DNA of 64,000 bases. Source: Bilabrum cf. latius (Eukaryota). Below are positions 26,725-49,634 of this stretch, piece by piece. The stretch covers positions 248,001-312,000 of the forward strand of contig OZ237746.1 in the NCBI GenBank assembly GCA_965178125.1, given 5' to 3'. The number at the start of each line of letters is the position of its first letter. The stretch's first letter is position 1. The position numbers were made by a program, and so were the translations under genes. The notes below the pieces were generated by a model. It saw nothing but the letters and a program-made list of their open reading frames with translations. It was not told where the DNA came from and ran no database searches.

Positions 26725-29700
26725 TTACATAAACCGACTGAACAATTCAACGATGGCTGCGGCAACTTCAGCAATTTCCTGACTAGCTTGCGTATCAACG
26801 GCACACATCATTCGAATGAGCGTCGCAGACATTGCGCCGGATCGCGCCAGAGCCTCCTGTACTTTGGCAGGACCATGCACGATGTGCTGAACTAACAGGC
26901 TCGCAAGTGTGGATACGTCTTCGGAACCGCTTGAGTTTGAAAGAGCGAAGAGCCTAGGGAGTCCATCAGCCTCAATGGTGGCCACTGCGGCTTCAGCATC
27001 ATCTGAAACAAGGTTGCACAAGAGACCACACGCGAACGTGAGACTGACTATCTCGTCATCCGCGTCCAACTGTCTAACGAGCAACGGCACGGCACCGGCA
27101 GCAACAACTGCCCTTTTCATCTGACGGTCGTCTTTGCAAAGGCAGGCTATAGATGAGTACATGGATATGGAGCAACCAGGATCTTCATGGCACGTGTGCT
27201 GCAGAAGGATCGGCAGGGCGTTTGCAGCCAGGATGCTCTCCTTCAACGACCTGTCTGGTTCGTGGCATACGGCCAAAAGGACTCCTGCTAGTTCACAATG
27301 GGAGATGCAGCTTTCAGAACCACGTTGATCTGCAGCAATGTGTACAATGTCGCTACCACGGAGAGCTTCTACCGCACGGTCACTCCTACCAGCGAGCTGA
27401 TAGACGGCCACGCAAGCCGCGTGGTTTGCTTGGGGGCGCGCTGCTGGGTGCCGCATCAGAGTCAAGAGTGAAGCAATCGCACCAGACTTCACGATCGTAT
27501 CGCTTCTCGCTGTCGCATCGGACTCATCTCCATCGCAGGTCCTGGCAAGCTATGCGATGCACAGGGCGGCAAGCTCGGCGTGTTCGTCACGCTCGCTTGC
27601 GAGCAGCTTCAAAAGCGAAGGGAGTGCGCCTGTATCCAACACTGCCTGCTTACACTCGATTGATCCAGCCGCAAGACTGCCGAACATTGATACTGCTGCT
27701 CGAACCAGCGCTTCATCCGTAGACCCGAGCTATGCAGCAAGTGCGGGCAAGGCCCCGGATCGAGCAACCGCAGCCTACAACGTTGGATGGCCTTGCACCA
27801 CCCACTCAAAGAACAAACTAGCCGATGTTACCACGCCCTTGTCGTCCGACGAAAGCAGTTTGACCATGCCAGGGATAGCACTTCGACCCCCGATGTCCAG
27901 CTCTAGCGATTTGGACTCGCGAACTGCTGCACCGAGAATGTCTGCAGCCATGCCGGCGACCTGGCACGTTTCAGAGTCCAGCATCGTCACGAGGCAAGGG
28001 AGCGCACTACTCTTCTGGATCTCGGGTAGCACTTCCTCCGAGAGCAGGTGCGTGTAGTGCTGCAGAGCTTCCAGCGCATATTGCGTTGCTGGGCCATCTG
28101 TCGGAAATAGCTACTTGGCCATTGCTTCAACTAGGCCAAGAGATAAAGCTGTCAAGAATTGATACTTGCACTCTTTGCCTGCCTCAGCTAACACGTTTCG
28201 GATAATCTCGCAAGCAGACGTGGCACAGCTGCCTACGGTTGAGGCGATGTTAGGGATCATCTCAGCAATGATGCCTGAGTGAGCTAAGGCGATACATGCA
28301 CTCTTGGACCCACTCGTTAGGCCAACCATCATCTGCAAGAAACGTTCGTTTGCGCATGCATGCCCATGATCTTGGTCAGTCGTCCCATCTTGTGTCTAGG
28401 GAGAGTCCGAAGGGGAACTGCCCACGCTCACAATGTCGCCGGGAATATCCTTGTCGCGCAACAGGCGCGCCATCCGAGGCATCACAGTGGAAAAAGTAGC
28501 GGTCTTGCCCATGGATGTCCCGAATTGACCGAGGCAGAGCAGCACCAGGGAAGCTCGTTTAGCGACGGAATCATCAGGCTCTGATCGGACGACTCTCGTC
28601 ACTGCTGGCAGTGCTCCGGCTTCGATGAGGGGTTGCAGCGATTCAACAGGCCCTTGCGACAAACGCAAAAGAGCAGCCAATGCGTGCATACGCCCCCGTC
28701 CTTCGCTTCTCTTGAGCACCTCTACGACGGGTGGTACGGCACCAAGCTCTACTGCCATTGCTCGACGGCTCTCACACAGCGTGGTCATCTGCGCGATACA
28801 TGTGGCCGTCAGATCATGTATTGGGCGGGCGTCATAACTTGCAAGTGTCTCAACGAGTGCCGCTAGCCCACCTTGTGCTACCACCGGCCCGGTCAGAGCC
28901 GGGTCAGCTAGCAGTAGCTCGTGTAGAAGAACGATTGCTGCCTTCCTGCAGGGGTTGCAAGACGCTGTCAGGTGTCTGCGGAGTATTGGAACCCCGCCTC
29001 CATCTACCACCACGTGTGCCCACTACCTGTCAGCGCAAAGCTGTTGGCTCAAGAGGCAAAGCGTGGGTAGGCTTATGACTTTATCGCTTGCAAGCAGGCG
29101 CACCAGAGCTGTAGCACCGTCTCTAAGTTGGTCTGATCCGGCTACTTTTGGCAAACTAGGAGACAAGATCCGGATGTTAAGACTTGCCACAATCTGAGCG
29201 AGAATTGACGTCTCCTGCTCTGCTCTTGCGTCGACATCTTCGTACTTCTTCACGAGTCCCACAAGACGTGTAATGGCTCCTTCTGACACGATGGCTTTGC
29301 AAATAGCTTCCCTTGTGGCCTCATCGCCCGATACCAACAGGGTGCAGATGCATCCGGTACACCTTTCCAACTCATCATTATCGTGCGAGTACAAACGAGG
29401 CAAAAGTGCTGGCAAGACACAACCTTCTGCCACTGCTGCTGGGCTGCCTGTTCGCAAGAGATGCCTTAGTGCCAGCCACGCACTGCGGACGATGTCAGCT
29501 TGGTCTGTCTCCAAAAGCGCAAGCAGTGCTGGAAGTGCCCCAGCATCGATCAGCTCACCAGCAAGGCTGGGATGCTCTGGAATGATTTCGGCAATCGCAT
29601 CGCACGTGGCGCGTGTCGCGTTTGCTGGGCCAGGTGCAAGATTCTGAAGAAGTATTGGCACCATGCTCACGTTCGCGACCGCATCAATAGCATCCTCTCT

Positions 29701-31065
29701 GCCAAGACAAGCGATGTATATCAGAGTGTGGACGGCTAAGCGAGCGAGTTTCTGGTCTCCAGCTTCTATGATGCTCTGCAGCGCTGCAACGGCACCTGCC
29801 TCTGCCAGCACGTCAGCAGCGTCACCTGAGCGGAACATTATCATGACCAACATCCGCAGCGCTGGCTCTACTGCATTATATTGCGAATTGAATCCGGCAC
29901 AATGAGTGAGCCCTGCAGCAATGCCGACCAGTTCGACTTTGCTTACAATGATGCGGTCGAGCTCAGCTTGACAGGCCACGATGACTGATCGCGAGGTATT
30001 CTTGCAGCAGCGGAACAGCAAGTAATAGACACCATCTTGAAGCTTACGCGCACGAAGCTGTTTGGCGATTCTATGGATTGCATCGCCTCCATTGACAGCT
30101 TCCTTTGCAGCTTCACAGGTGTCCTCGATGCTCTGCCTCATGAGCTGGGAGAGGCCTTCGTCCCCCTTTGGACGCAGGGCGGAGCAGAGCATCCGAACAC
30201 AGATCTCGCTCATTCCAGGAGGCGCCGCCGAGAGGCCCATTCCGGCTTGTTTGATTAGTGCGGGGATGCCAGCCTCTACCGATGGCCCGCCGGCAGCTAT
30301 AGCCTGGTAGCCATCTGCGTCGGCACCCGTGCCAGCACCTGCGGGAAATGGCGCGGCATCCGCAGATGAACCACCCTGCAATACGTGTACTAAGCACTCG
30401 AGAGTGCTTCCAAGCGCGATGGCTGCCAGTCTGGCCTGTTCTGCCTAGTCAGTTGCCGGCTGGCCACTCGCGCTGGGAGCCGATGTGCCTTCGCGATCGC
30501 CGCATGTCTCCGATGGGGTAGGCACTGCGTGTGACCGTGGACCATTTAAAGTTGTAGTGCAATGTGGCAATAGCACAGCCCTCCCGGCTCTGCCCACGCC
30601 ACTGCCTTCGTTCTCCTCCGTCTTCCACATGACGTGGTCCAGGCTCAGCCGGCTGAGATCCACCCCGTGCTGCATCAGGTGGTGCGCGCCCTCTGCGATG
30701 TCGCTGGCAATGAGAACTACTTCAGTAGTAGTGACTAATCCGAAGACTTGCTTGATGTTCTCCAGATGCTGCCTCAGGGTGCACTCGATCCGCTTGGTCA
30801 CGACTACCCTGGCCCTCGCAGGGATCGATGCCTCGTCCTGTGCTCCACCGGATGCGGCTCCCTTGGAGCTGGTTGATGAACGCATCTCCGAACCTGTTAA
30901 AAAGTGTCTCCTCAACCACTTGGGGACGCTTGTTGCCTTGTCGAAGAGGACACTGGCGACGTTGGGATGCTCGGGAACTCGCCCAGGCTGACCGCTTGGC
31001 ACCGTGGCTCCATTCAAGTTGGCTGCACCAGTGTCATCACCGGCGTTGATCTTGTACATTCCCAT
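26725..31065 (-). CDS. Pseudokinase-like N-terminus + armadillo-repeat protein, paralog C (>=1446 aa; both ends uncertain)
   Basis: Fragments 30445-31065, 29023-30381, 28396-29013, 28111-28338, 27775-28032 and 26725-27492 are in frame. PEHPNVASVL...ASDIAEGAHHLMQHGV. Frame stays open upstream to ~31251 without an ATG. The terminal TAA overlaps a GTAAGT that could be a splice donor. Confidence 0.78.
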
Positions 31066-31680
31066 CGTTAGATCTATTTGCTAGGCCTTAGGTTCTGATG
31101 ATCTTGCCGAGCCGCTCGTTGGGCTGCCGATGTCGACAGTGAGGTGAAGCAGCACGGCATCTCCTAGCTCTGTTAGCACCTTGCTATGCCAAGATGGCAA
31201 TTCTTGCGCACGCGATTCGAAAAAAAATCCATAATGACCTTGACTGCAGCTTCAGTTTACATTATCTGCGGTTTTGGCTGTATAGAAAACGATACATTGG
31301 GTGCTCATTGTTCTCGATCGGCGATCCGATAACAACAGGCATCAAGTGACAGGATCGTAAATTTGGAGAGTCAAATAGCTACAATAGTATATGTACAATT
31401 GGTTTGTACAGATCGTTGCTATCGTCTTACCTGCAGGCTTATGCAAGAAGTGCAAAGAAGAGATTACCCCCCCCGCTACGGTAATAAATAAATTTATTCC
31501 CTTCGGTTAAGGATGATTAACATCATCAATAGTTCCAGTCCATCAGAGCTAAAGCTCTTCAGTCCGTTCCACTCCTTTTGGAGCTAGTCGCTCCAAAAGT
31601 CAAGGTGATACTCTTCATACTGCTACTTCATATAACTGCTTTATCCTTCTAATTATATAAAATCAATTTAATATAAAACT

Positions 31681-31809
31681 CTATACGATGACCATATCCA
31701 TAAATTGCGTATTAGTATATGTAAGTTCTAATCAAAACGTGGATGTAGCCCTCTTGTGAAGGTGTTATGGGACTCTAGCCATTTTCTAGCCAAAAGTTCC
31801 ATCACTTTA
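31681..31809 (+). repeat. Dispersed ~130-bp non-coding repeat with inverted arms, copy 1 (others at 33011-33146 and 46291-46425)
   Basis: Shared blocks ATACGATG, ATATCCAYAAATTGCGTAT, AAAAYGTGGATG and AGTTCCATCACTTTA at near-constant spacing. Confidence 0.9.
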
Positions 31810-32172
31810 TGGGACTCCATTATTCAACCTTCTAAACTACCTTCATTATACCCCCTTATCCTCGCTTATACCTTCACAAATGGAACAAACGCGCAACAGC
31901 AACTCGCTACACTCGTCATCGTCAAAATGAACCTGAACCTGAATATTGGAGTTCAGCATTTCTTAGGAAATATGAGGGTCTAACCAACAGGATTTAATAT
32001 TAAAGTTTAAACCTTTATTAAGGGTGTATATGTTTTTAAGTATTAATCTATGCCTATACATCACATAACCCCCTTCATAACCCTAGCCTATAGGCAGGGA
32101 TAACCCCCACATAACCCCCCCACCTCTAAGCGTTTTTTTAAAACTCAAAAATTATAACTTAGTATTATAGAT

Positions 32173-32943
32173 ATGAACTTTAATAATTATGTCATTGAAA
32201 ATCCCGTCCTAATGAAGCAGATTTATAAGGCTACAGACCATATTACGGATAATACACAGAAAATTTTAGAGACCATTACTACGTATGTAGATTTAGGTGG
32301 TAAGTTTTCAAAACCTAAATTAATTAATAAAAATATAGTTAGTGATATTAAAGAGAAAAAAGCCGTCAAAAAACCCAAGAAAGAAGAGAAACAGAAGATA
32401 CAACACGATAATAACGACCAGCTTGAAATTAACCAAACATACATTCTAGATAAATTTAATGACTATAAACCACAGAATAATAAAATTTATAATGATGTAG
32501 ATGATTTACAACCGCCAGAATTAATTAGATAGACCGCAATAGATGAAAAATTAACCGGTATGGAGCCTGACAGTGAAAGTGAAATAAACAGCGTTAGTAC
32601 CGAACAAGACTAGATAGAAGCAGAAAGTGATGATGAAATGATACCTGAGGAAGAGAAACAAATAATAGGAGACCTGGAAAGGCTAGAAGACGGAGACTAT
32701 AGGTATAAAGTGTCCGTAAATGGAAATGATGTATTTTTTGGTGAAATTAATTTACCCGATGTAGAGGCTCTTAAGAAATAGTTTAGCCCTCGTAAATTAC
32801 AAATTATGATTTGTAAAATTAAAAGAAATTTTAATATTAATAATAGCGATGATATCAACAGCCCTGAGTTTTGGAATAGCCGGGTATATTTGACCCTTGA
32901 TGTGAAGGCCGAACACGAAAAACTACAAGATATCTATAATTAA
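32173..32943 (+). CDS. Viral hypothetical protein (256 aa); acidic middle, C-terminus resembling a degenerate Tlr6F-like domain
   Basis: Reads through TAGs to TAA 32941-32943; YKVSVNGNDVFFG...SPEFWNSRVYL resembles the C-terminus of 42484-43191. Confidence 0.65.
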
Positions 32944-35850
32944 AAGCCCCTACAACTTAATAAACGGGCTAGAATTTAATAAAATATTTTAATATAACCG
33001 CTATATTAAAATCTATACGATGGCTATATCCACAAATTGCGTATAATTATATAGTATTTCTAGCAAAATGTGGATGTAGGGCCTCTTGTGAAGGTGGTAT
33101 GGGACCTTAAGATAATTTTAAAAAATAGTTCCATCACTTTAGAAGGTGTTAAAATACACCATTCATATCACAATCTATTTTTTAGGGCTAAATGGCAAAA
33201 ATCACCTTTTACCTTCATTAATTATTATAGCCCCTTTAAGCCCTCTATAATTAAATATGGCGTTTAAAATAGTTTAAAAATATATTTCTAATAATATATA
33301 TAGAAAATGAATAATAAAAACCTTGTAAGTTTCCCCATCAAGCACAATCAAAAAATACCCGATGTTAAAAGTTGGCGATATCTCACCAAACCCGAACCTA
33401 AACGATTTAATAATCAGAATATGGCTATTATCACCGGAGAAATTAATAATATAACCGTGTTTGATATTGATTCATATAAATGGAGCGATAAGAAGGAGCA
33501 TTTATTCATCAAGAAATTTTCAGATGACTTTGTGAAGCGGTTCAACACATTCACGGTTAAAACAGCGGGTGGAGGGTATCATTTATATTTTAAATATGAT
33601 TAGAATATATTAACTACCACCAATAGAGATATTGACGTTGATATTCGTAATGATGGGGCTTATGTAGTGGCACCACCAAGTGGCATAAATGGGTCAAAAT
33701 ACGAAGTTATTAATAATGTAGAAATAAAAAAATGTCCTAAGGAGCTTTATAAATTTTATGAAAAGTATATTATTAAATCCTCTAAGAAATCCAACGTAAA
33801 AGGGGCGAGTAAAAGGATATCAAAAATTGATAATCAAGATGTGAATAACTGTATGATGAAATTCATTCTAAATGGTAAAGACTGGTCAATTATATTAAAT
33901 AGATTAGATAAGAAATATTTAAATAATTATAGTGATTGGTATAAAGCAACCCTAGCGAGTAAATATTTAGGATTTAAGAAGGAATGGTAGGAGTGGAGCA
34001 AGAAGGGCAATAAATACGACTACCACAAAAATAACAAGGTGTGGAACTCTATCCATTATTTTGATAAGTTAAAAACCTTTAATTTAGTTAATTCAATAAT
34101 TTAGAATGATAAAAGTTTAAAGGCATTTGTGAAGGATAAGTATATTTCAAAGTGTTATTATCGTCCTTATGACGAGAATATTAACGGGTATACAGAAATT
34201 AATAAACCTAAGTTAGATGATATAGAGAAGCCCGAACGCTTTTTTAAATATGAATATAACTATGTGGTAAAAAGTGATACAGGAACAGGTAAAACAACAG
34301 CATTTAAGAAGTATATTAAACAGGTTCAAACGCCGTTCTTATCCATTGTGTCCCGTGTATGTTTAGGCACAGAGCAATACGAGAGCTTTTTAAATGAAGA
34401 TATTAAATGTGAGTTCTACCAGAATAAAGATTTTGATTTTGGATAGTCTCTTATTATTACGCCGGAAAGTATCCCCCAAATTGTGAATTATGATTTTTCT
34501 AAATACATCGTATTCTTGGATGAATTCAATAGCATTATAGAGCATATATTAAGTTCTACCACGATGAATAAAAATAGGGTTCTTGTATTATTTATTATTT
34601 TAAAAATGATAAGGACGTGTAAATAGTTTATTGCTGTAGATGCTGACATATCCCAGATAGCGATGAAATTTTTAAAATGTGCTGGAGTAGAATTTAGCTT
34701 CATTAAGAATAAATATAAGCATTTTAAGGACGTAAAAGTATATTTTGAAAAAGACCAATAGAAATTTTACGATAAATTAAAAAGTGAAGATATATTTATA
34801 CTGGCGTGTGATAGCAAGAAGAACGCAGATACATTTTATAAAATGTTATGTAAAGATGGTATAGAGGACGTTAAATTAATTACTAGTGATTTATTACCTG
34901 ATGAAGATGTGAGCTTAGATAAATATGATAAAATTATATTTAGTCCTAAAGTCATTTACGGATTAGATAGTGTAATGGAACGCCCAGTGTATGGATTATA
35001 TAAAGGAAAAACGATTCTACCGCCGTAGATGATGTAGCAACTGGCAAGATGTAGAAATCCCGAATATATGAATATATATTTTGAAGATGTAAAATCCATT
35101 TATCCAAGATATGAGAATTTAAAGGAGGTATAGACGACCTTAAATATGGAAATTAACGCATAGACAGATTTATATACTAAATTAGAAAAATACGAAAAAA
35201 GGATAATGTAGGAGAATGATATTGACATTGATATTTTTGAGGGAGAAGATGATGAAGAGATAGCCCATAAAGCAATGATAGAGGCATCATATAAGGTTTA
35301 TTTACCACTCAAGAAATTATATAATTTCAAATGTGATACATACGAAACAAATAAATATATTCATTTATAGCTTATTCTTAAAAACAGGGGTGCCGATGTA
35401 TAGGTGGATAAGGAATTACCACAACGAATGAATAAATAGCAGATGAAAGAGGCGACAATGGAGATACTACAAGAAAAGATTGATTCAGTTGATGTAGAGA
35501 ACGACCATATAAAAAGAAGAATTGAAATTTTAGGGCTACCAGAGACAGCCATAACGGAGGATATTAAAATGTTATTAATTGATAATTACAAATTAATGAA
35601 TTATTTTAATTATGCTAATTTCAAGAGAAAAGATAAATATAAACTAATGACAGAATTAATGATCCTAACGCCGGATGGGGTTCGGTGTTGATGCCAGAGT
35701 GGGAGCGCGTGAACGTCTCGTTGGGTTCCGATGGCGGTTGCGACCGGGAAGGTGCGACCAAGCCAACGGATTGCTTGCGATGACGCGCATACCCTCTCTG
35801 TGTTCAGGAGAGGGGCGGAGATTGGGTAATTTCACCGACTGGCAGCTTCG

Positions 35851-38800
35851 ATGCACTCATCCCCGCCACCGGTCGACGCTCTACCCGCTCATCAGCCACC
35901 CCGTGAACCTCCTGTCTCATCTTCTGCCTCACCGCAGCCTGCGTCTTCAATTGACCCAGTTTCACCGGGCGCAGGCACGGCAGTGGACTCCGCGGTCGGT
36001 CGCTCGCAACCAGTGGAGAATTTGTAGCGTGAGGCCTCTGCACCTTCAATCGCTGCAATTCGAATGCAGAATTGGTTTTCTGATGATTTCTTGGCAACGT
36101 TGACCTCGATCTTTCGCCAATCCGCGTTCATGCCGCGGTTTTGCTAGGCTGACGCGCTTCATTTGGACGCTAGCGGCCGCGATTTCGCTGCCGAACTGGC
36201 CCGTGCCCTGTTTGGTCAGGCTGTGACGAGAGCCAAGATTGAATCGGCTATTTTCTCGTTCACGAGCCGGCTTCATGCAGCTCTGCCGATGAGCAATGCT
36301 AGTTTTGGGAAGTTTGATGCGTCCAACTCGGAGTCGTCTGCTGCAGGCGGACGAGACAAGTAGGTACCATCTAGCGAGTTACTATGCACTATTTACTCGG
36401 CTATTTCCTTTGCTTTAGGCTGTGTGCTTGTGCGGGCTGCTTGCGTGCATTCGACGGCGTCCTTGCCGTCCTGGTTGCCGCAGGGCAGCAGCTCGTGGTA
36501 GTGTCCAGCATCACTAGTGCCCGATTGGAAAACCTTAGGGCAGGTTCGCAATGATTTTCTTCGTTTAGTTAGTGCTTCCGGGGCATCATCTGCATCGGCG
36601 TCCAGACTAGAGGTGGTGTTTGCCGCTGTGTGTGTGATACCACGCGGAAGTTCAGCTTTTGAGATGCTCTCATCCCATGCTTGGCGCCATACAGGCGAAC
36701 GCTGTGACGTTGAGATTCGTGACCTTGTTGGGAATGAGATTCCATCTTGCTCTTCTGGCGACTGCATGCGTCTCCTACAATTGCTGCATCCGTGGGCCAC
36801 TGAGGCATGCAGATCAGGCGAACCTGGCCTCGTGCGCGGACTGCTACAGGGAGTCCAGGCTGACATGCAGGCGCCGTCCCGTCGAGCAGCACTGTCCCGT
36901 CACTTCGACCCCCGCGGGGGCAGTGGAGGCCGGGGCAGTGGAGGCGGGGGCAGTGGAGGCTCCAGGCACAGCGGGGGTGACAGCGACCAGCCCAGTGCCG
37001 ATCGTGGCGGAGGTCGACACCGTCGAGGCCGTGGACGTGGCGGTGCAGGCCAGCAAGGTGGCCAGCACCAGCGTGCGGACCGGCAGGACGGGGGCTCCAC
37101 CAGGAAGTCCAAGGAGCCTTCACCTGACCCCCCCCCACGAGGTACGTCACGTCAGAGCCAGCCCAGCACTCCAACACCAACACTGCCGCAGGGGCGTACG
37201 CAGACTACCACCACATCGGACGCGTGTGCTGCTTCCACACCACCTGTCACGTCAACGCCCGCGCTTCACCCAGTCCTGGTGGCCCTAGCGCGCCCTAAGC
37301 GACCGCAGCGGCCGCCCACGGCGTCATCCACGAGGCTGCCAGGTAGGACGGACATCTCTCCAGCATTCGTTGACTGGGCATATCCAGCTCCGGATCCAAG
37401 CCATGAGTGGGCAGGGACGACAGCACCCTCCGTCGAGGACTTCATACAGCGAAAGGACGATCACCAGCGTACCAGAGAATGTCCCGGCGAATTCGTGGAG
37501 GCTCCAGCTGCGACGTGGGACCGTGAGCGGCTCCACCTGAAGGTTCACGACGACCCGCTGGCATTCACGCCACGCAAGTACTTCGACAAGGTGCCTCGCT
37601 AGACTGCAACACTGCGGACCCGGCGGGAGGTTCTGTTTGGCGGCCGCACACCGAGGAAGGCCCCGTCCCTTGCCGAGTTTAAAGCCCTCCCACGAGTCGA
37701 GCGTGTACTGGCAGCACTGAACTATGGTTGCCCCCTAGCCATCGTGGACGAGGTGCCCAAAGAGCACGATCTAGACTACAAGGACCGTAAGCTGTCTCCG
37801 GAAGAAAAGTGGGAGATCGCCTGCGAGATCGGGCGCTCCATGCGGGCTGGCGAGCGTGACTTCGTGTCACCCAAAGATTTCGACACAGCCCGGGCCCGGC
37901 CGCTGGTGATCCCCAAGAAGGACTCGACAAAGCTACGGTTCCTTCAGGACTCCTCACTCAAGGTGAACGGCCAGCGTACCGGTCTGAACAAGGCCATCGA
38001 CTACAGTGCAGCCACGCCTGTGCAGCAGACGAGCAGCATGGACGTGCTGCGCTCGGCAGCCGCAGCAGTTCGATCCTGCCCCAAGCGTGCCAGCGGATAC
38101 GTCGTCGACATTTCCTCGTACTTTCGGGTCCTGCCGGTGGCAGTGGAGGATCTCCAATACAACCTGATCAAGCTGCCCGACGGGCGCATCGTGCAAGATT
38201 TCAGGCTCTCTATGGGCAGCTCATCATCTCCCGCATTCGCAACTACGATCAGTTCGGCTTTGGCCCAAGCCCTCGAGGAACAGTCCATTGGCAGGGCCAT
38301 GCGACCCGGACGGAGACACAAGCAGAAGCAACGACGCCGGAAGCAGCAGCACGCCAACGCCCAATCCAGCACGACGGACCAGGCGCCCCAGGCGAACTCG
38401 TCAGCAACGTCCACCCCGCCTGCCGCTAGCACGACAACGGGACATGTCAAGACGGCCCAAGACTAGTCCCGCCATTGGTAGGTCGAAAATGAGGTGTTTG
38501 TAGATGACTTTGCCTGCCTCGGCGGAGATCACGAAGTCGATGCATGGGCAATTCGAGCCATGGGGCAGCTGGACTCCACAAACTTCCCCGTCAGCATCTC
38601 GAAAGCATTGAAGCAAGGGGCCCCAGCCCCGGTATTCGAGTACTTGGGCCTCACCTACGACTTGATCAAACACGAGGTGCGGTGCCCTAAGGACAAGGCC
38701 AACGACGTCCTGCGCAGACTGCACGAGGCACTCACGACGAAGGGGATGCTGCTGTCTAGCTTTGAGACCTTGGTCGGCAAGTTGTCCTTCCTGTCGGGCG

Positions 38801-40386
38801 CACTTTATGGTATGCGCGGTGCTCTACGTCCCCTGTATGACGCCAAGGGCTGGGCCCTTCACAAGTAGGCCAGCCGGTCACGACCAGGTGAGGTGTGGGT
38901 CCCCACCTCCTTTGTGTCCAAGGGTGGCTTCACAGTTGGGGAAATCCTCGAGGGATTCCAGGTGGCTATCCAGCGCAAAGGCGGGCGCAGTTTTCCGATG
39001 CGGGGCACCATTGACTGTCCCATCCTTCGCACTGATGCGTCGGTGACAGGCTACGGCGCCGAGCTGCTTCTCCACGACAAGGACGGCAACATCACTTCGC
39101 ACACCGGCATCCAGGGCACTTGGCCGCATCGCCTAGAGGCGAAGGATGTAGCGGCGGCAGAACTTGCAACATGTTTGTTGGCACTGGCGCATTGGCGACA
39201 GCACCTGCGTGGACGTGTGGTGCGTTTGTGGTGTGATAATGATGCTTCCGTGTAGCTGATACGCTACGGCAGACCCAAGAGCCACATCATGGCAGCCTTA
39301 CTTCGCCCTATCTTCGTACTGCAGACAACGCAAGATGTGCAGATTCACGTGAAACACATTCCTGGCGAGGACAACGTCGTTGCGGACGCTTTGAGCCGCG
39401 GCTCACAGGAGGCATACACGCACCTGGACGCGGTGTATCCGGTCAACTGTCCCACGCCGATCTGGAACACCTTGTCCAAGCACGACCATTTCACGCTGGT
39501 GGCCACTCTGGACTCAGTGGGTTGCGCACGGCGTGGGGGCACTTCGACAACTTCCTCACGTGGTACGACATCGACCGCAGCTTCATGGACGGGCATCTTC
39601 CAGCAGCTCGCAGACTCTTCGCGTTCAGGCTCAATGCAGCGCTCTCGAGATTCGCAGTCTTCTTAGGGGAATGTTCGCCTCTCAGTGGCGGCACCATCGC
39701 TACATACACCAGAAATGCCTAGCGAGTCGTCATCGAGTCCACAGGAGCGTGCGGCGTCCCACGGTCAAGCTAGCTCGACAGCATCCTCCGGTACTACCAC
39801 AAAGCATCGCCATCGGCGCACCCGTTGCGTCGATCTTCAGCCCCACTCCGCGCAATCCGACGGTGTTTCTCGACAGCCGGTTGCAGCACAACAGAGTAGG
39901 CTGCTCGGGCAGCTGTCTGTCTCTGCTTCTGTGGGGGCCTCCGGCTGGGAGAGCTCGTCGGTGCGTCCAGACGACAAGCCGGCCTCCAATGGCAGCAAGT
40001 GCAGTTCATCACGCGAGACGGACGCATCCATGGTGTTGCCATCCGCCTGGGCCTCCACAAAGCCGACGGCCCAGCCAAGTTCTCCATCCAAGCCGCAGAG
40101 CCCATCGCAGTCCATTGCAGAGCCGGACGATGGGCAGTCACAGGCAGCAGGTTCTGCGGCGTGCGAGCCTTCGTGGCGTGGGCAGCAGCGAGCCACGCCC
40201 CAACTGCAGGCGCAGACGAAGACTACGCCCGGTAGCTGGCGCTCAGCTGCCCCACGTCAGGGCCAGTCTTCGTGGCGAACACGAAGCCGATCGTCAAGGC
40301 GCAGGTAGTACGGGCGCTCCGCAGCTTCTGCTCACGAGAAGTTGCAGGAGCGGTGCACGGACATTCCATCCGCATCGCGGCAGTGA
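35851..40386 (+). CDS. Ngaro Gag-like + reverse transcriptase + RNase H polyprotein (single frame, ~1511 aa)
   Basis: ORF fragments 36163, 36517, 37744, 38494, 38893, 39289 and 39685 are all in one frame, joined by TAG. RT: KLRFLQD, YVVDISSYF, LSMGSSSSP, FVDDF, EYLGL. RNase H: TDAS, AAEL, WCDN, HIPGEDNVVADALSR. Ends TGA 40384-40386. Confidence 0.85.
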
Positions 40387-40580
40387 TGTGTTTGGACCGT
40401 GCTGGGGTCGCCTTCGAGGTCATTAGGCGATTTGGCAGATGGAAGTCGGCATCTGCATGCGAGGTGTACTTGCGGGGCGTCAGGGAAGGCTTGCCTCCTC
40501 TGGAGCTCGGCGGCAGGAGCCTCGATTTGAACAGGCCAGTGTGGGTGCTGGCCAGCGCGCTGCGGCTGAACTTGGAGTGA
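39243..40580 (+). CDS. Ngaro tyrosine recombinase (start undefined; overlaps the pol frame)
   Basis: Frame open from 39243 to TGA 40580 with two TAGs; catalytic signature GGLRLGEL (R), LHKAD (K), HSIR (HxxR), GRWKS...VY (W, Y). Confidence 0.88.
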
Positions 40581-41565
40581 GCCACACAGCCGCAGCGTAC
40601 AAGACATGGCGGTAAGATTTGGCGGAGTAGTGCACGTGCTCTTCCCAGCCCCGGTCAGTCCGGTCAAGGGTCGCGCACAGGCACAGCTTTGTCAGGTCTT
40701 GCCATGTCTGATTGTTAACGAGACTAGGTTGCGCGTACACTCTGGCATCATGATCCTAACGCCGGATGGGGTTCGGTGTTGATGCCAGAGTGGGAGCGCG
40801 TGAACGTCTCGTTGGGTTCCGATGGCGGTTGCGACCGGGAAGGTGCGACCAAGCCAACGGATTGCTTGCGATGACGCGCATACCCTCTCTGTGTTCAGGA
40901 GAGGGGCGGAGATTGGGTAATTTTTGCCCACCCTCCCAACCCCCTCCTCCTCGGCGGAGTAGTGCACGTGCTCTTCCCAGCCCCGGTCAGTCCGGTCAAG
41001 GGTCGCGCACAGGCACAGCTTTGTCAGGTCTTGCCATGTCTGATTGTTAACGAGACTAGGTTGCGCGTACACTCTGGCATCAAGGATAGAAAGGATTTTA
41101 AGGATGAGAAAGCAAAAAGTACAAAGAATAAAATAATCATATTGTAGGAGATGTTATAGACGCTTAAATTGAATAAATTTGATTTAAGTTATACACGTAA
41201 AAATGAGAAATCCATTAAATATATAGAAATGGGTAAAAGATATGTAGAAGTAAGCGGGGCGAGATTATAGAAGCCAATAGAAACCGATAGTGAATTACAC
41301 GGGGCAATCGTAAAATTATATAAGTAGTTATTTGGAAATATCAAAACCTCCTGGAGTATGGGGAATAAAAAGGATAAAAAGGATAGAGAATTAAGAATTA
41401 AATTCACCAAGGAGAAAGAATTATTTGATGAAGTTTATAAATATTAGTATCCCGAAATGAAGGACGTATACAAGGAATCCAACGAACGATTAGATTAGAA
41501 TATTTAATACCTTTTTTATGTGTTTAAAATAACTTAAACATTATATATTTATATAATATATAGTG

Positions 41566-41868
41566 ATGAGCGATATTTAGAGTTCAAGCAATACATAGGA
41601 ACAACCAAAAATTAATTATATGTAGGAATATTACAAAACAAACAAAGACAAATGGAATAAAAAATATTTAGCTAGAGGAAATGAAAAAGTTAAATGCGAT
41701 GTGTGTGATTGTTATTATAGAAGGAAGGACAGAACGAGACACGAACGAACGAAGAAACACCAAAAAAATCTCAAAGAACCAAAAAAGGATATACTAGAGG
41801 AATATATCAAAAAACTTAATCAAACCCTGCTTAATAGCGGGATTAAACCACCGGAGATATCAATTTAA
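41566..41868 (+). CDS. Small C2H2 zinc-finger protein (100 aa)
   Basis: KCDVCDCYYRRKDRTRHERTKKH; visible only with TAG=Gln; homologous to 60487-60759. Confidence 0.8.
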
Positions 41869-41908
41869 ATTTATCTATTTATTTATTTTTTATAAATAAA
41901 AAGATTTT

Positions 41909-42430
41909 TCAACCTTTAATAACCATCCAATTAGCGGACCAATCATTAGAGGAATTACCACCCGTTAAATGAATCGTAAATCCATCGGTTCCTGCTACTA
42001 CGTGGGAAAATTCAACCGGCTCACTGGCGGGGGTGATTGTAGTAATAAAAACCAAATCACTAGAAGTCATACCCGGAACACTAGCGAATTCAGTAGCACC
42101 TCCACCACTCCAATTTACCCTTCCTTTATGCGCTACGGTGTTATTTGCTACTACTTCACCTTTTACGGTTAAATCACATTCGTGACCGTCTTCATCAAAA
42201 CTCATAACTAAACCAGCAGATGCGGTATTGGCACCGAATCGTAAAGCTTCACCCGAAGTGATGTAAGAGATACCCTTACTGTCAAGATGTAATCCTGCGT
42301 TGCTAACAACTACATCACTACTATTCACAACAGCATTTACATATAGACCACTACTATCTAATCTACCAGTTGCGACATTCTTACATTGAATAGATATATC
42401 ATTAGGTTGCGATAATCTTGCTAAGCTCAT
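41909..42430 (-). CDS. Putative virion fibre/structural protein (173 aa)
   Basis: Beta-rich; N-terminal half homologous to 54245-54736 (LRFG.N.ASAG...S..E.G..CD....G); function inferred. Confidence 0.55.
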   Translation of the reverse strand: MSLARLSQPNDISIQCKNVATGRLDSSGLYVNAVVNSSDVVVSNAGLHLDSKGISYITSGEALRFGANTASAGLVMSFDEDGHECDLTVKGEVVANNTVAHKGRVNWSGGGATEFASVPGMTSSDLVFITTITPASEPVEFSHVVAGTDGFTIHLTGGNSSNDWSANWMVIKG

Positions 42431-42483
42431 TTTTTGTATATATAAATAAGAGAAAAACTAAAACTTATATCAAACCTATAATA

Positions 42484-43191
42484 TTAAACTTTCATTAATT
42501 TTTTAGCTCTATCTACGGCGTCCATAAAGCTATCTTTTAATGTTGGTTCATTCCATAATACAAACCTAGACCAAAAAGCGGGGGATTTATAGTCTTTAAA
42601 GTCTTCATTTATTGAATGTCTTTTAATATAATTTTTCTTTTTACGGTTTGCTTCCTTCTCTCCATCTTTATTATAATATTGTATAAAGTCCATATAAGGG
42701 GTACCATCATTCTTAATTCCACCAAAATGAACAGTAAACAGAATATTATTACCTTGAACTACTTTAATCATATATTTTTTATTTGATTTAGTTGATTTAT
42801 ATAAATTAAAAACTGGTTTAGGTCTAAATGATTTCACGTGTCCGTTATTAAATTTTTCCTTCATTGCTTCCTCTATTTCTTCCGTGTCTAATTCTCCAAA
42901 GGTTAAAGGGGTCTCTTTATTTATTCTTTTAGTGGGTCTATATATATCTCCTTTTTCCTAATATCCCTTTTCTCCCTTCTAATTCTTCCAATCCTCTAAT
43001 TTCCACCTTCTTAAATTTTTCTATGCTTCATTTAATTTAATTTTATCATATGTCCCCCCTAGTTTTTTATATGATTTAAAGTATGCTAATGAACGATAAG
43101 CTGAAGGCTTTTTATACGTTCTATTTACTTTCTCAACTGCCTGACGCCATAATTTAGGACTATTAATATAACTAGGTATATTATCATTCAT
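42484..43191 (-). CDS. Fusion of a conserved virophage/NCLDV-type domain (KPSAY..RW..E.W..YRPT.RI...TP.T) with a Tlr6F-like domain (235 aa)
   Basis: With TAG=Gln extends from ATG 43191; C-terminal KKYMIKV..VHFG...YMDF...RKKNYIKRH...SPAFWSRFVLW is the Tlr6F-like pattern of PLVs/virophages. Confidence 0.7.
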
Positions 43192-43385
43192 CTATATAAT
43201 TAATAAAATGATAATTTTTTAATAGCGTGAGCCGTTTTCTTTCTATATTCTTCATAGACTCTTTTATTAGTTGGATTCTTCATTAATTTATTTTTTACCT
43301 TCTTTAATGCCTTCTTAATAGCATACTAAACAAAGATATTACTAATAATATTAATCATATATTATATAATTAATAAATATTTAAT

Positions 43386-44885
43386 TCAAAGCATTAAACC
43401 GCCTTTTTTTCCTTTCCTTGATATAATTTCTTCTTTTTCATTTACGACCATTAAATCATTCTATCCGTGGATAATTAATTTCTATCCTTCTTCATTTATC
43501 TATTCTTCTTTATATTCACCTAATTCTTTACCTACTTTAAAATTTAATCTTTTGTTAAATGTGATACTGTCGGTGTGAATTCGTATAATATGTTTAGCGT
43601 TGTTCTTATTCACTTTCTTCATCAATCGTTGTCTTCCATATGCCAGAATAAAAGGTTTCAATTTTCCCCAGCTATATTTAAAGGGTACTTTATGTTTCAA
43701 ATGATAAATAAATTCTCCGTCATTATCCATTTCTACACGGTCAATATCAAATTTATCTATATTTATTTTTTTATCATCTTTTGATGTAATTGTCTTTTTA
43801 GAGGAACTACATAATTTACCCCATAATGAATTTAATATTTCTTTTGCTAGATATGATTTGCTTTTTAATTTGTAGAACATTGAGACATAGGATTTAAAAA
43901 GTGTTTCACCTTTGATATATTTATCATAGGTCATAAAATTAAATTCGTCGCTTGACATCTCTATCTCACACCCATATTTAACAAACATATTCATATCAGT
44001 AAAGACATAATAAGTAAATTCATTTTCAAATACCTTCATCATTTGAAAGATATTCGGGTCGCATTTTCCACGGCTTACCTTACATTTATAAATCCCTATT
44101 TCGTTTTTATTATTAATCTATTTATTATCAATTGTTTTATAAATAGGATTTCCATATGGTAGTAGTGAATTAGATGACATAATGGCGGGGTAATGACTAT
44201 TTATATCGTAGGTGATAAACTCCTCATATTGTCCCTTCTTGTGATATTGAATCCCGCCACGCGTTGAACCTTCAATAAATACCGCTTCCTCTGGGGTTAT
44301 ATCTGGTGGGCTATCTATCATCATATTAAACATTGTAAAGAAATGAAGGGCTGTTTGTCTGATTCCATATTTCATTACATCTAATGATGGGTTCTCGTCG
44401 TGTAATTCATCACTTGCTATACTCAGCCTTAAGCTCCATTCTTTGATATCTTCATCCTCTGGGCATTCGTGAATGGTGTAATGAAGATAATATTTCTTTG
44501 AATGATAATCGGTTAGGCTCTCAACTCTATATTTATCTTTTTCAATTATTTCGGCTTTATCGGTTAATTTAACAACCATAGATTTATGGCACCGCACAAA
44601 TAAAGGTTTCATCCTCTAGACGGCTTTAAATGAACCATCTTTATATTCTAAACAAACCCTTTTAAAACTCTTTTTTTTCCTACTTAGATAATAGACCTTT
44701 ATATCGTCTTTCTCTCTAATCTCTATATCCATTTTTAAACCTGAAACAAGTTTATAAAGGTTCTTTGTAGTTATGGGCTTACCGTTAAATACCTTTTCTA
44801 GATACTTCACGGATTGAATGGGGTTATCATACTTTTTACCAAAGCATATATTTAATTGATTTAACACATTTTCGTAATTTATCAT
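43386..44885 (-). CDS. polB: Short family-B DNA polymerase (499 aa; protein-primed type likely; no recognisable exonuclease motifs)
   Basis: TRGG, YDINSHYP (motif A), KEILNSLWGKL (B), RIHTDSI (C); one frame through TAGs to TGA 43386. Confidence 0.85.
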
Positions 44886-44904
44886 TTCCTATAGTATATT
44901 ATAT

Positions 44905-45137
44905 TCGATCCGATGGCTACCGGCGCCGTTCATGTTAAATGAACGGAGCAGGAACTTTCTTCAAAAATTACCCAATCTCCGCCCCTCTCCTGAACACAGA
45001 GAGGGTATGCGCGTCATCGCAAGCAATCCGTTGGCTTGGTCGCACCTTCCCGGTCGCAACCGCCATCGGAACCCAACGAGACGTTCACGCGCTCCCACTC
45101 TGGCATCAACACCGAACCCCATCCGGCGTTAGGATCA
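44905..45137 (-). mobile_element. Inverted Ngaro remnant: repeat A plus a ~60-bp tail unlike repeat B
   Basis: 44964-45137 is the reverse complement of A2 (including GGGTAATTTTT); 44905-44963 is GC-richer than the virus and contains the hairpin CCGTTCAT-GTTAA-ATGAACGG. Confidence 0.9.
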
Positions 45138-45194
45138 AATATATTTTTAAGCCATTTTAAACACATATTATAAAGTTTAAATTATAAAATGTAA

Positions 45195-45536
45195 TTATTG
45201 TTTCGGAGCAGTGAGGATTAATATAAATCTCTTCACTTGCTCATCACTTAAGAAGGTATAGCGAGAAGAAGGACTGAATAACATTACATCATCCTTTAAT
45301 TTAAATGGTGAACCAGTTCGCCAGCCTATGGGGTAGAGAGAACTAACATACGCATCATAATTTTTTAAATGGGGCTTTTGTTTTAATAACCTCTAGATAT
45401 ATTTTTTTAATAAAGTCTTCATTTCTAAATCATTATATCCATCATCTGGACGAGGAGGGAACACGAAATTATATACGGGCTTATTGTTTTTAACAAGTTG
45501 AGTTCTAACAATTTGAATATCACTTAATTTAACCAT
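45195..45536 (-). CDS. 113-aa protein homologous to the N-terminal domain of element-2 PolB
   Basis: IVRTQLVKNNKPVYNFVF...SLYPIGWRTG versus PQRTKLRLNGKPIWSMRF...INYQDTGWRTR; lies directly upstream of polB on the same strand. Confidence 0.7.
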
Positions 45537-45628
45537 TTTTATATATATACTATAGATATTTTATTTTTAAGCCAAATACACGCGTTTAAAATGACTTAAA
45601 GATTTTATTTTATTATAATATATATAGA

Positions 45629-46174
45629 ATGTCAAAATTTGAGAGTTATGAACCAAGCGAATTAATGGAACTTTTAGAAGAGGGAGCCGTAAAGAAAGCC
45701 AAGAAATATATTAATCAATTCTTCTTTAAAACTTTTAAAGGGATATTTTTTAATAATACCGTAGAAGATAAATTTGAACTAGTGGATGAAGACGAATTAA
45801 ATGGTTTGTATCTAACCCCTGATATGAAAACCGACAGTGCCAAAAATCCATTTGTTCCATACATTTATATGTTTTCTAGTGAGCCCCCGATTTATTATAC
45901 AGGAAATTTTGAGAGTAAAGACCCCATAATGACAATTAAAAAGAAGGACAAACCCATCAAATATATTAATTTGTCATACGGTCAATTTATACCCGAGGAA
46001 GTAGAGGAACCAGAAGAAGAAGAAGAACCAATAAGACCCAAGAAAAAGACTAAGAAGAGGAATAAGAAGAAACAAAAACGTGATAATAATAGAAATGTTG
46101 ATAAACCAGATGATGAAGATGATGATGAAGAAACCTTTAGAGACCAACTAAACGAGGCATTAAAAGATTTCTAA
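45629..46174 (+). CDS. Viral hypothetical protein (181 aa) with acidic/basic tail
   Basis: Clean ORF ending in TAA, preceded by the AT-rich TATAATATATATAG motif. Confidence 0.7.
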   Translation: MSKFESYEPSELMELLEEGAVKKAKKYINQFFFKTFKGIFFNNTVEDKFELVDEDELNGLYLTPDMKTDSAKNPFVPYIYMFSSEPPIYYTGNFESKDPIMTIKKKDKPIKYINLSYGQFIPEEVEEPEEEEEPIRPKKKTKKRNKKKQKRDNNRNVDKPDDEDDDEETFRDQLNEALKDF

Positions 46175-46496
46175 ATAATTTAATATTTATACTAATATTA
46201 AATATGATATCTTTATTAATAATTGAACACCTTGACCATCTAATAAAAGGGCTAGAATATTAAAATATATATGGTTATCTCTATAATAAAATCCATACGA
46301 TGGCTATATCCACAAATTGCGTATTAGTATATGTATTATTTAGCAAAACGTGGATGGATTAGTTTTATGAAGATGATTTGATTGATATCGTATTTCTAGC
46401 CCAAAAGTTCCATCACTTTAGAAGGTTGTAATATAGCCCCTTCTAACTCCCATCATCAATATGTTAAATATTAATTTTATCATTAATATCTAATTA

Positions 46497-47048
46497 TTAT
46501 TTACCAATATGACATTTATAACAAATTGAATATTTCATATCTTTAATTCTAGACACTCCGCATTTTTTACACGCCTTTTTACCATATTTTGTAATCGTAT
46601 AACAAGACTTACAGGTTGTCCTCCAATCACTTCTAAGCATTTTACAAAGACACACATCACATCTTTTTTCATTCCTCTTTTTTTCCTCTAACTTATTCTA
46701 TTTCTTTTCTAACTCAATATGTCTTATTCCTTCACAGTGCTTATTATATCGGTCTCTTGCGACATCCTTTTTACATATTCCACACCACTTATATAAACAT
46801 TTTTTACGAATTTGATTTTCTTTATCCTTTATCATCTACTTTATACAACTAGAACCCACTTTAAAAACATATCCACTAGGGGTATGCTCTATTTCGTGCT
46901 CGGTTCGTATCTCGTGCCCACAAATACAATTACCCAATTTATCACCTTGAATAACGGTTGAGCCAATATGAATTAATTTCTTCTAAATGTCCATCCATTT
47001 TATATTACCGGTATGTTCCTATATTTGTTCAATACACTTTTTACACAT
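46497..47048 (-). CDS. Multi-zinc-finger Cys-rich protein (183 aa)
   Basis: CICGHEI...VGSSC, WCGICKKD...KHCEGIRH, then four CxxC pairs; needs TAG=Gln; ends TAA. Confidence 0.8.
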
Positions 47049-47200
47049 TCTCTATATAATATCTATATAATATAATCTTTAAGTCATTTTAAACGCGTTA
47101 TATTATAAAAAAGGGGCTTAAAAAATAGACACTATTGATATAGATGATTATATTAATTAATATTATTAAAATATTAATTAATTAGACCGGTTAAATAGTT

Positions 47201-47313
47201 CTTTGGAAAGTATGAACCTACTTTGAAAAGTATGAACCAACTTCGGAAAGTATGAACCTACTTTGAAAAGTGTGAACCAACTTCGGAAAGTATGAACCTA
47301 CTTTGGAAAGTAT
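47201..47313. repeat. Intergenic 20-bp tandem repeat, ~5.6 copies (CTTYGRAAAGTATGAACCWA)
   Basis: Directly visible; variants alternate, giving a 40-bp higher-order period. Confidence 0.95.
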
Positions 47314-47702
47314 CATTCACAGGTCATATATTTATTTAATATGTATAAATAAATAATAAAATGATTATCTTGCCTTATATAATTGAATGGGTTTCTTTTC
47401 TAATAGACAAACAGCCAAATAATGAAGTACAATGTCATCATCTCTATACTTATTCCTCGTCTAAATAATACATTTATAGGTTGAATATTTGAGATATAAT
47501 AGCTTCTCTCTACTGTCTTTTTTTAATTGATTGGTGATTTCTTTTACCTAATCACTGTTTGTAAAAATTACGGTCAAAACTCCATCAATTTCTGTCTGGA
47601 TATAGACATCGTGTGTAGGCGGTAGATTCTCAATAATTTTATTTAACTTTTCCATTTGATATATATTAGTTAGTTAATATATATTTAAGTCATTTTAAAC
47701 GT

Positions 47703-49151
47703 TTAAGATGTGCTTAAAAGGGCCTCAAGATCGTCTGTTTTCATTGCCGCACCTCCACGCATCGTAAGTTTTCCACCAAGTTTATTCAATTCTCCTCCAC
47801 TATTTCCATATCCATAATGTGCCGCCGCTTTGCCAAGAGCACTATTGTCTCCTGTTAGACTTTTGAGTGGTCCTATATTCCTAATGGTTTTCGCTAGGTT
47901 TTTAGCCTAATCACTTTTTGCCCAATCTTTAACCTTGTTCCATCCGTGTTTAAAGGCTCGTCCAATCTTAGACCAGAAACGACCTTTTCCACCCATAACA
48001 TTAGCATAATTATCTAAATCCTCAAATACAGGCTAGAAACCTTTAGAACCACTTTCAGCATCACCACGTTTAGCAAGTTCAGAAAGCACTTTAGAAGGCT
48101 CAATAAGGGCGCCAGCCTCAGTATAGACACCGTTATCATTCACAAGAACATTATCATAAAACATCCATACTTTTACCTCGTATTTATCCTCATACGCACC
48201 ATCCGCATATTTATTATAAGGGTTGAAGCACTAAAGATTAACTTTAAGATTAAATCCAGTATTTACATTAGATTGAACACCAGCAAGTGTAGCAACATCT
48301 GAAGGTTTTAAAATCATATAGCAACCAGTACCGCGGTTTCCATCACTTCCATCAATTGATGAACCATAAAAGGATGAAGGAGGAAGAGCATATCCGTTCT
48401 TTCTACTAATTCTATATAATTCGTGTGGATTATCTACAGCCCCTAATTCCTCAGCGCTTCCATTGAGTGAGAAACCTATTCTTCTAATTGGTAAAGTTCT
48501 ATTAGCCCAGTTAGGGTTATCATCACAACCAACAAGGCGGGCACATACCATAATAGCACTAGGGATACCATTCTCACGGGATAATTGATAATCAAAAGAA
48601 GTTAAAGAATTTTCAGTTGCGGATTTAGGTACAGGGACAGGCGCCTAAGACTAAAATTTAATTGTAGGCATATTATACATACAACGAGTCGGGGGGGCGT
48701 ATCCACTCTAAAATTCAACTTCATCAACAAGAAGGGTCGTATTTGTTTCTCCTATAATTGACTAACCCGTTATTTTGTTAATATCTCCGTTATCTTTTGT
48801 AAAACTAGCCTTACACAGTCTTTGAATGGCATTTACGTGATAATCTAAATCAACCTGAAGGCTTCTCACACCGGTGAAATATTTAGCATTCACATCAACA
48901 TCTGCTCCTTTTAGTGGTATAGCTTCTTGAAAATCAATAGTCCAATCAATTTGGTCTCTATTACCCGCAACGAAATCAGCACTTACAGTCGTAAAAGCAT
49001 TCCCATATGCTCCACGATAACTAAAGCTATCACCGGCACTATATCCAACATCCTAACCCCAAGCTAAAGGATTTTTAAGGGTATCACTTACTTCACGATA
49101 ATCACCAACAGTGTCAGGGCGTCCAACGGGTGAGATTGTGGATAAGGTTTG
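47703..49151 (-). pseudogene. Major capsid protein of element 1, 5' part (~130-140 codons) displaced by element 2
   Basis: ~482 codons open to TAA 47703. Collinear with MCP 56008-57774 (NPLAW/NALAS, FTGVRSL/IFGLETL, GIPSAIMVCAR/SVPSRLFVFAR, ELYRISRKNG/QLWDLSRSNG, basic Gly-rich tail). Homology stops at the G7 run at 49151. Confidence 0.85.
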
Positions 49152-49634
49152 GGGGGGACAACAGGTGGTGGTAGGTACACCAAGCGTTTAGGACGAGGGC
49201 TACGCTACGCTCGCCCCTCCTTTAAAGGCATATTTAGCAACTCAAGTGTTTCCCCTATAAACCTAAATGATTTCACAGGGGGTTCCCCAAGAACCCCTAT
49301 AGAACCCCTCTATGTACCCATTTTCAGATATAAAATTTACTCCTACGAAGTAGGGGTAAATTGAAGAATTCTAATATTTAACCCCCTTATAAACTCTAAC
49401 AGCAAAGACAGAGATGTTTTAGTAAAGTAGGAAAAAATGAAGAAATTAACCAAGTGTCCAAAATATCTCTGTGTTTGCTGTAGGAACGGAAGGATGAATT
49501 CCCAAGAGACCAAGAGACCAACCGAGGATTTCCCCAAGAGAACAAGGTATTTTATCAAGAGACCGAGGTATGTTCCCAAGCGACAAACCGATAAACCGAC
49601 CGATGAACCGACCGATGAACCGACCAAGGATTTC

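Follow-up and report, generated by a model that had tools for sequence, protein, structure and literature searches.

A virophage-associated Ngaro retrotransposon family in a UAG=Gln host and a candidate G-quadruplex stop in its replication

A recently active family of Ngaro retrotransposons almost certainly inserts into AT-rich virophage DNA in the genome of Bilabrum cf. latius, joining its target at the junction of its B and A repeats with neither duplication nor loss of bases, at loose sites marked by T or A at position -3. The window, that is the whole 64,000-nucleotide stretch of contig OZ237746.1 (assembly GCA_965178125.1) analysed here, contains one copy inside a virophage primase-helicase gene. 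This copy is very probably an abortive product of replication and not a deletion made at the DNA level. As Ngaro types 1 and 2 have already been published from endogenous virophages of Cafeteria burkhardae (Hackl et al. 2021, PMC8547959), this is a second case and not a new system.

The element and the virophage that carries it

The features of the window are listed with their positions and strands.

31468-49150, no strand: host virophage (copy 1), beginning with its left terminal repeat and reaching as far as the insertion of a second virophage in the major capsid gene
33307-35659, plus: primase-helicase, upstream part, 784 codons with Prim-Pol, PriCT-2 and SF2-type helicase motifs
35660-35832, plus: repeat A1, 173 nt, 3 nt less than the 176-nt A elsewhere
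35832-35833, plus: truncation junction, where A ends and position 1411 of the 6,660-bp element follows, with a loss of 1,237 bp
35851-40386, plus: rest of ORF1, 1,511 codons from the first ATG, 11 TAG
39243-40580, plus: tyrosine recombinase (YR) frame, 445 codons stop to stop, 4 TAG
40621-40750, plus: repeat B1, 130 nt, ending in TCA, its first 73 nt folding as a hairpin
40716-40813, plus: predicted hairpin of the B1-A2 junction (z -5.65)
40751-40926, plus: repeat A2, 176 nt
40927-40944, minus: G-quadruplex motif of four G tracts within the A2-B2 spacer (40927-40952), bordered by the 3' end of A
40953-41082, plus: repeat B2, 130 nt
41083-41507, plus: primase-helicase, downstream part
44905-45137, minus: second insertion of the same family, 233 bp, element positions 1-233 only, no B
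49151-64000, no strand: second virophage, inserted in copy 1 and flanked by a 5-bp target duplication, continuing about 2.5 kb beyond the window

The insert at 35660-41082 comprises 5,423 bp of about 60% GC surrounded by DNA of 30% GC, and its split direct repeats follow the order A1, ORFs, B1, A2, 26-nt spacer, B2. An earlier note on this DNA had described it as an intact and recent element with identical repeats. The repeats are indeed 100% identical (35660-35832 to 40751-40923 and 40621-40750 to 40953-41082), and the recent date is borne out by another copy, L003, with 0 differences over 5,250 nt; nine other alignable copies show 17-66 differences and two further copies are out of register. 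The copy is not intact, however. It is without positions 174-1410, which hold the 5' leader and about 410 N-terminal codons of ORF1, whereas seven genome copies are 6,660 bp long with one 1,928-codon ORF1 and a 445-codon YR frame; an eighth copy of that length is frameshifted. Splicing was ruled out as the origin of the deletion, because the GT-containing end of A is retained at the join, so that the missing piece is not an intron.

What remains of ORF1 covers the C-terminal part of a Gag-like region, reverse transcriptase (RT) with the motif FVDD at 38497, RNase H with TDAS at 39031, and a low-complexity tail that overlaps YR. As the earlier note had stated, these frames are open except for TAG, with 11 in the RT/RNase H frame, 4 in the YR frame and no internal TAA or TGA. 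Pfam placed RVT_3 above cut-off (E 1.7e-6), with weak matches only to RVT_1 and RT_RNaseH. The YR frame has the residues R, K, HxxR, W and Y, and its match to PF00589 lies below cut-off (E 1.5e-4). A PDB sequence search with YR gave nothing under E 0.19, and scans with a YR alignment returned 0 of 104 candidates in viral contigs and 4 of 137 in metagenomes. The long region N-terminal to RT is without a Pfam match and is called Gag-like by position only.

On its repeats, gene order and lack of target duplication the element is classed as a Ngaro of the order DIRS, by the definition given in PMC9210276: RT and RNase H precede YR, as judged from motifs, the Pfam evidence being weak for RT and YR. 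No DDE integrase family matched its ORFs in Pfam, and homologue searches returned no named Ngaro sequence. PAT-like elements, also of the order DIRS, are described with a methyltransferase domain (PMC7192593), and none was found here, neither as a Pfam match nor as a DPPY-like motif in the long ORFs, a search that a very diverged domain could escape. The only inverted match within the element is 35 nt at 74%, in contrast to the inverted terminal repeats and internal complementary region (ICR) of DIRS-like elements such as DIRS-1 (PMC7192593). The element has direct split repeats. PAT-like elements also differ from Ngaro in YR placement.

The interrupted gene allows the insertion to be read base by base. 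Of 33 genome matches to the primase-helicase, 20 were fetched, and 16 of these loci (L032-L047) contain the uninterrupted junction that the earlier note had predicted from an insertion without target-site duplication; of the remaining four, one is the copy in the window and three are diverged paralogues. The 925-residue frame expected at the empty site is equally real, with 925 codons in 14 of 15 whole uninterrupted genes and 903 in one. In its 2,353 upstream bases the window gene differs from uninterrupted copies at 8-30 positions and so is not decayed. The note held the gene to be knocked out. The interruption costs 141 C-terminal residues; loss of function is likely, although the 794-codon frame that is left retains the Prim-Pol, PriCT-2 and helicase motifs.

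The host element is identified as a virophage, a group recognised by major and minor capsid genes, ATPase, protease and inverted ends. Uninterrupted relatives of copy 1 are about 27 kb long, and inverted ends are present in L171-L174. The second virophage carries major capsid protein (MCP), penton, ATPase, protease-like, pPolB and helicase genes, with Sputnik MCP and penton families above cut-off and the protease recognised by eye; the split capsid gene of copy 1 gives a weak MCP match. At its insertion point (window 49150; about position 2994 of L166) the second virophage has poly-G/C ends. The reverse nesting also occurs, as a virophage of the same type splits a Ngaro copy with a 5-bp duplication (G000:C14:1091838-1109324; L017, L019). 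The smaller Ngaro remnant at 44905-45137 cost its target 1-2 bp and sits just upstream of a pPolB-like gene. Copy 1 further contains a three-copy intergenic motif block (31669-31835, 33001-33167 and 46281-46446), possibly a promoter, and positions 11657-31065 of the window are occupied by tandem long armadillo-repeat host genes that are open for TAG.

Truncated copies and insertion sites across the genome

Exact A starts of the window's family, F1, number 71 in the genome and exact B ends 67. Twenty-four copies, that in the window among them, form an A-capped series, in which a nearly whole A is followed by a 3'-coterminal piece of 5 to 6,475 nt. In 15 of them A is joined at 186, 416, 950, 1410, 1411, 3093, 4222, 4756, 4821, 5063, 5217, about 5633, 5733, 6015 or 6186, and the element then runs to B2 except in L016, which is cut short in A2. 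The other nine consist of A and the last 5, 5, 12, 15, 32, 41, 49, 54 or 130 nt of B. The left breakpoint is fixed in this series and the right one free. In 22 of the 24 A stops at 172-178; of the other two, one ends at 165 and one runs 12 nt into the spacer. The joins show microhomology of 0-5 nt and a single 6-nt insertion. L001 and L002 have different sequence backgrounds and different joins and share an internal break at 1410/1411, a position that on this sequence comparison is a stop hot spot.

The base that follows position 176 bears on the origin of the cap. In the genome the next base is C after A2 and A after A1. Among 20 copies tallied by hand, leaving aside four in which A ends before base 176, it is C in 12 (one with a nearby mismatch), G in 5, T in 2 and A in 1, an enrichment of C with a binomial p of 0.008, or 0.021 given the preceding G. 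Since this base is mostly C, as it is after A2, the cap appears on statistical grounds to be copied from A2. The enrichment is absent in the four junctions checked from the families F2 and F3. In F2, F3 and F5, too, there are truncated copies with the whole or a part of A as their cap.

Several copies stand outside the series. L008 is without A1, the window remnant and L052 retain the 5' end without B, L027 and L069 have other internal deletions, and L051, L057 and L065 are A only. Remnants leave scars, either as 332-bp A-spacer-B units or as A alone, and one A-only remnant cost its target 6 bp. The genome has at least four further Ngaro families (L091-L110), and one F1 mini-copy (L068) lies inside the A repeat of F3. 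L105, an F4b copy, has A plus spacer fused end to end with 19 nt from within A, a piece that may mark where transcription starts. Relative to F1, RT identity is 61% in F2, about 31% in F3 and about 44% in the metagenome relative L189 (same family as L188); this relative (L187-L189) has 45% YR identity and TAG-open ORFs of up to 1,841 codons.

Forty-five left flanks were used for the site test, and for 17 of them a natural empty copy was available among the fetched loci. Insertion was exact at 16 of the 17 sites, the exception being the A-only remnant with 6 bp lost. The empty site of L004 is also spanned by a contig from another sequencing run. The only strong signal in the target lies at positions -3 (T in 38 and A in 7 of 45) and -2 (T in 27 of 45).

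The earlier note had proposed a test for enrichment of copies in AT-rich viral islands, and the young ones show it. With young defined as an A at least 99% identical and an AT-rich flank as less than 46% GC, AT-rich viral DNA flanks 33 of 35 young copies as against 0 of 20 arbitrary 3-kb stretches. Among older copies AT-rich flanks number 1 of 16 and host-like flanks 15 of 16; these host-like flanks mix viral DNA turnover or a past change of preference into the targeting signal, and the old host-side remnants fit either short virophage residence or such a change. Altogether 52 insertions were scored, one without a usable A identity being dropped, and the window remnant was excluded together with five loci that are rearranged or split. 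Flanks were classed by GC; for 27 of the 52 there is in addition a match to fetched viral DNA, part of that DNA being their own neighbourhood. Young copies that retain YR sequence and lack the start of ORF1 have AT-rich viral flanks in 9 of 9 cases, a count for which the 95%-identical L015 was reassigned to the old class. Families differ in preference, F1 and F4 being found in viral and F2, F3, F4c and F5 in host-like DNA: right flanks are AT-rich in 5 of 5 F4/F4b copies, and the flanks of F2, F3, F4c and F5 have 0.45-0.62 GC.

A candidate route to the truncated copies and its alternatives

We lean slightly towards an explanation in which plus-strand strong-stop DNA stalls at the spacer G-quadruplex and joins full or unfinished cDNA. 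RNA would start at the end of A1, and RT would make minus-strand cDNA leftwards from B2, often stopping early. A plus strand begun in B1 would copy the B1 end and A2 and then stall at a G-quadruplex folded by the spacer in single-stranded cDNA. This minus-strand structure would lie on the template just past the plus-strand stop point, and the one or two C observed would be added as the plus strand entered its first tract. The strong-stop DNA would use 0-5 nt of homology to join the 3' end of a complete or truncated cDNA, after which YR would recombine the regenerated B-A hairpin with the target; strong-stop DNA integrating alone would give A and a few bases of B. Truncated products would be made and inserted by the proteins of the parent and would therefore show the same viral targeting. 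Both the polarity of the boundary and its cause we infer.

The spacer itself points in this direction. It carries four C tracts with differing loops in F1, F2, F3 and L189, and on the minus strand it is the sole four-tract G-quadruplex motif in the 3.2-6.9 kb examined of each of these elements and borders directly on the end of A; about 0.02 such motifs would be expected by chance per shuffled element, by a strict pattern that was set after the spacers had been seen. The conserved motif is 17-20 nt long. In F1 the boundary comes after the first C tract and not after the T run. Such a stop is not universal, since no minus-strand four-tract motif was found in the spacers of F4, F4b, F4c and F5, where A ends at internal homology or a T run. 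Two further points count against the G-quadruplex explanation: full-length copies need one read-through of the spacer, for which it has no account, and the enrichment of C is modest. Contigs of 4 sequencing runs cover the family, yet cannot reveal ends, strand or circles, because the B2-A1 junction reads the same as B1-A2; no RNA run was among the sequencing runs found with the family.

The presumed substrate of YR can also be folded. The predicted junction hairpin is formed by the final 35 nt of B with A 29-63 and has the B-A join at its loop base. Seven in-genome elements were checked, and each has a B that ends in TCA and a minimum-energy fold with the junction at or near the base of a loop. 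The hairpin beats shuffled sequences in F1, F2 and F5 and weakly in F4, but not in F3, F4b and F4c, and its stem shows two compensatory pairs between F1 and F2. The whole 3' block folds with a z of -4.05. A search of the 3' repeats against Rfam gave 4 matches, all far below the gathering score, and no ribozyme.

An unlikely but worthwhile alternative is a minus-strand strong stop, primed at the 3' end of A2 with the C-rich spacer as primer-binding site. The cDNA would copy A2 and part of B1, jump to B2, with B serving like a retroviral R, continue through the ORFs and be closed end to end. It is the simplest source of the 8 copies with A and 5-54 nt of B, and it would suit the one copy that retains 12 spacer bases, the conservation of the first 11-12 spacer bases in F1-F3 and L189, and the hairpin at the start of B, which could force the jump. 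A primer is harder to name: the spacer has no match to a tRNA CCA end, its best sense-strand partners are unremarkable and differ between families, and four kept tracts with changing loops are left unexplained. A self-primer complementary to the spacer was searched for, with nothing consistent found; poly(A) priming on the U run was rejected for F1, where A reaches past the run and such priming cannot yield G176 and C177. The cap could also come from A2 by a template jump on RNA, a model of the classical kind reportedly due to Goodwin and Poulter, in which the 3' end of a cDNA begun in B2 would jump to a hairpin loop that exposes the end of A2. This predicts an A2-derived cap just as well, in F1 and F2 the A end and spacer are predicted to form a small hairpin whose loop contains the T run, and F4b copies join over a 19-nt homology inside A. 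We consider it rather improbable, as that hairpin has no compensatory change between F1 and F2, the smallest copies would require 5-nt cDNAs and closure over 5 nt, and the G-quadruplex motif has no role.

Ordinary deletion after insertion, from a fragile spot at the end of A1, is very unlikely to have made the series. Some remnants are clearly of other kinds, being 3'-truncated or A only, and A-spacer-B units could arise by recombination of A1 with A2, as described in Cafeteria (PMC8547959). In the series itself the junction bases follow A2 and not A1 (12 C against 1 A, n=20), no G-quadruplex motif stands beside A1, the same fixed end recurs in other families, and copies are identical to their parents with exact flanks. 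Separate from the replication mechanism is the proposal of the earlier note that the insertion, being scarless, could be reversed by YR to restore the viral gene. Precise excision has already been hypothesised for Cafeteria, where virophage clones lack Ngaros found in the matching endogenous copies (PMC10945749); exact insertion and intact YR residues would be in keeping with it. The scarless part of the proposal stands for insertion (16 of 17 exact) and falls for excision: empty copies cannot be told from sites never invaded, and the remnants are scarred. No excision product was seen in the loci examined here, the halves of the junction hairpin are 5 kb apart once inserted, and copy 1 carries two further interruptions, so a reversible switch is doubtful.

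Genetic code, related systems and significance

The element, its virophage and its host share a genetic code in which, from alignments of paralogues, UAG is read as glutamine and UAA and UGA still stop, as the earlier note had claimed for the element. TAG faces Gln above any other residue, namely in 39 of 115 non-TAG columns in AT-rich and 21 of 74 in GC-rich genes, with 16 and 7 for the next best residue, the columns not being independent. In AT-rich genes TAG is the commonest change from Gln, one YR TAG is aligned with Gln in three outside homologues, and viral and host genes terminate in TAA or TGA. Prp8 has 3 TAG, at variable sites, and no TAA or TGA in 2,663 codons; HSP90 showed no TAG in three matches. 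A nuclear tRNA with a CUA anticodon is present (L118, G000:C23:907607-907679) and is not clearly closer to Gln tRNAs of the same genome (45/75 and 49/77) than to its Tyr tRNA (51/75). The share of TAG among Gln codons is 14/28 in the helicase part, 14/39 in the capsid gene and 7/57 in a host armadillo-repeat gene. The host of the metagenome relative L187-L189 probably has the same code.

The three-tier parasitism that the note had envisaged in a UAG=Gln host came through both the targeting and the empty-site comparisons. The same nuclear code variant, with UAA and UGA as stops, is described for Iotanema, Hartmannula, Trochilia and Protocruzia, one fornicate and three ciliates (PMC11687900, PMC5304391). 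The best identity of the host Prp8 is 72%, and a one-gene tree places it on a long branch outside animals, fungi and the alveolate clade; the host may be a further origin of the code. Integrated viruses also match the code of their host in Streblomastix (PMC10120064), whereas here a retroelement and its metagenome relative share it too. Sequencing runs labelled with several organisms contain the Ngaro family, a pattern that would fit a flagellate co-occurring in cultures. A second eukaryotic 18S gene lies on a small contig (L111, G000:C95) and is presumably dinoflagellate-like. Contig C111 looks mitochondrial and carries a tRNA with a UCA anticodon.

The Cafeteria Ngaros described in PMC8547959 resemble this family closely. 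They have the order A1, ORFs, B1A2B2 in about 6 kb, RT-RNase H before YR and solo AB units, are GC-rich within AT-rich virophages, differ between families in preference for viral or host DNA, and include an insertion in a primase/helicase gene and a virophage inside a Ngaro. Here, unlike in Cafeteria, the Gag-like region, RT and RNase H form one 1,928-codon ORF, UAG is read as Gln, and the host virophages carry Sputnik-type capsid families. The literature covered, including the parts of PMC8547959 on the Cafeteria Ngaros, gave no description of a continuous A-capped series or of a G-quadruplex spacer. Halocafeteria, a relative of Cafeteria, is reported to be without virophage-targeting Ngaros (bioRxiv 10.64898/2026.07.28.741278).

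DIRS-1 of Dictyostelium is likewise a YR retroelement that needs an internal copy of its end junction to rebuild its ends (Malicki et al. 2020, PMC7192593). Its cDNA is single-stranded minus cDNA, with the primer given as unknown, and this is the state in which a G-quadruplex folds and which the G-quadruplex explanation requires. DIRS elements share a trinucleotide at the junction (PMC7192593), as opposed to the one constrained position, -3, found here. The proposed route would resemble the plus-strand strong-stop transfer of retroviruses, in which a short DNA is likewise halted at a fixed block and is then joined through its 3' end to that of the minus strand. The block there is a modified tRNA base and here would be a G-quadruplex; the join here has almost no homology, and YR inserts without duplication.

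Taken together, this is a second host beside Cafeteria with virophage-targeting Ngaros, and exact insertion by YR at almost all AT-rich sites, under the constraint of a single base, is unusual for its family. ORF1 has been proposed to set the target in Cafeteria, where ORF1-less copies lie in host DNA (PMC8547959), whereas here they lie in viral DNA; such young copies argue against ORF1 choosing viral targets in cis. Tentatively, a G-quadruplex in cDNA could be the left-repeat stop signal of a split-repeat YR clade and the abortive copies its fossil record, with viral targeting provided in trans by the integration complex and not by ORF1 in cis, in a host of independent UAG=Gln origin. In the literature covered we found no experimental test of priming and end rebuilding in Ngaro or PAT elements. 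A fixed boundary, a motif of 17-20 nt and two dozen natural intermediates make the question of Ngaro replication experimentally tractable and give a handle on replication and targeting.
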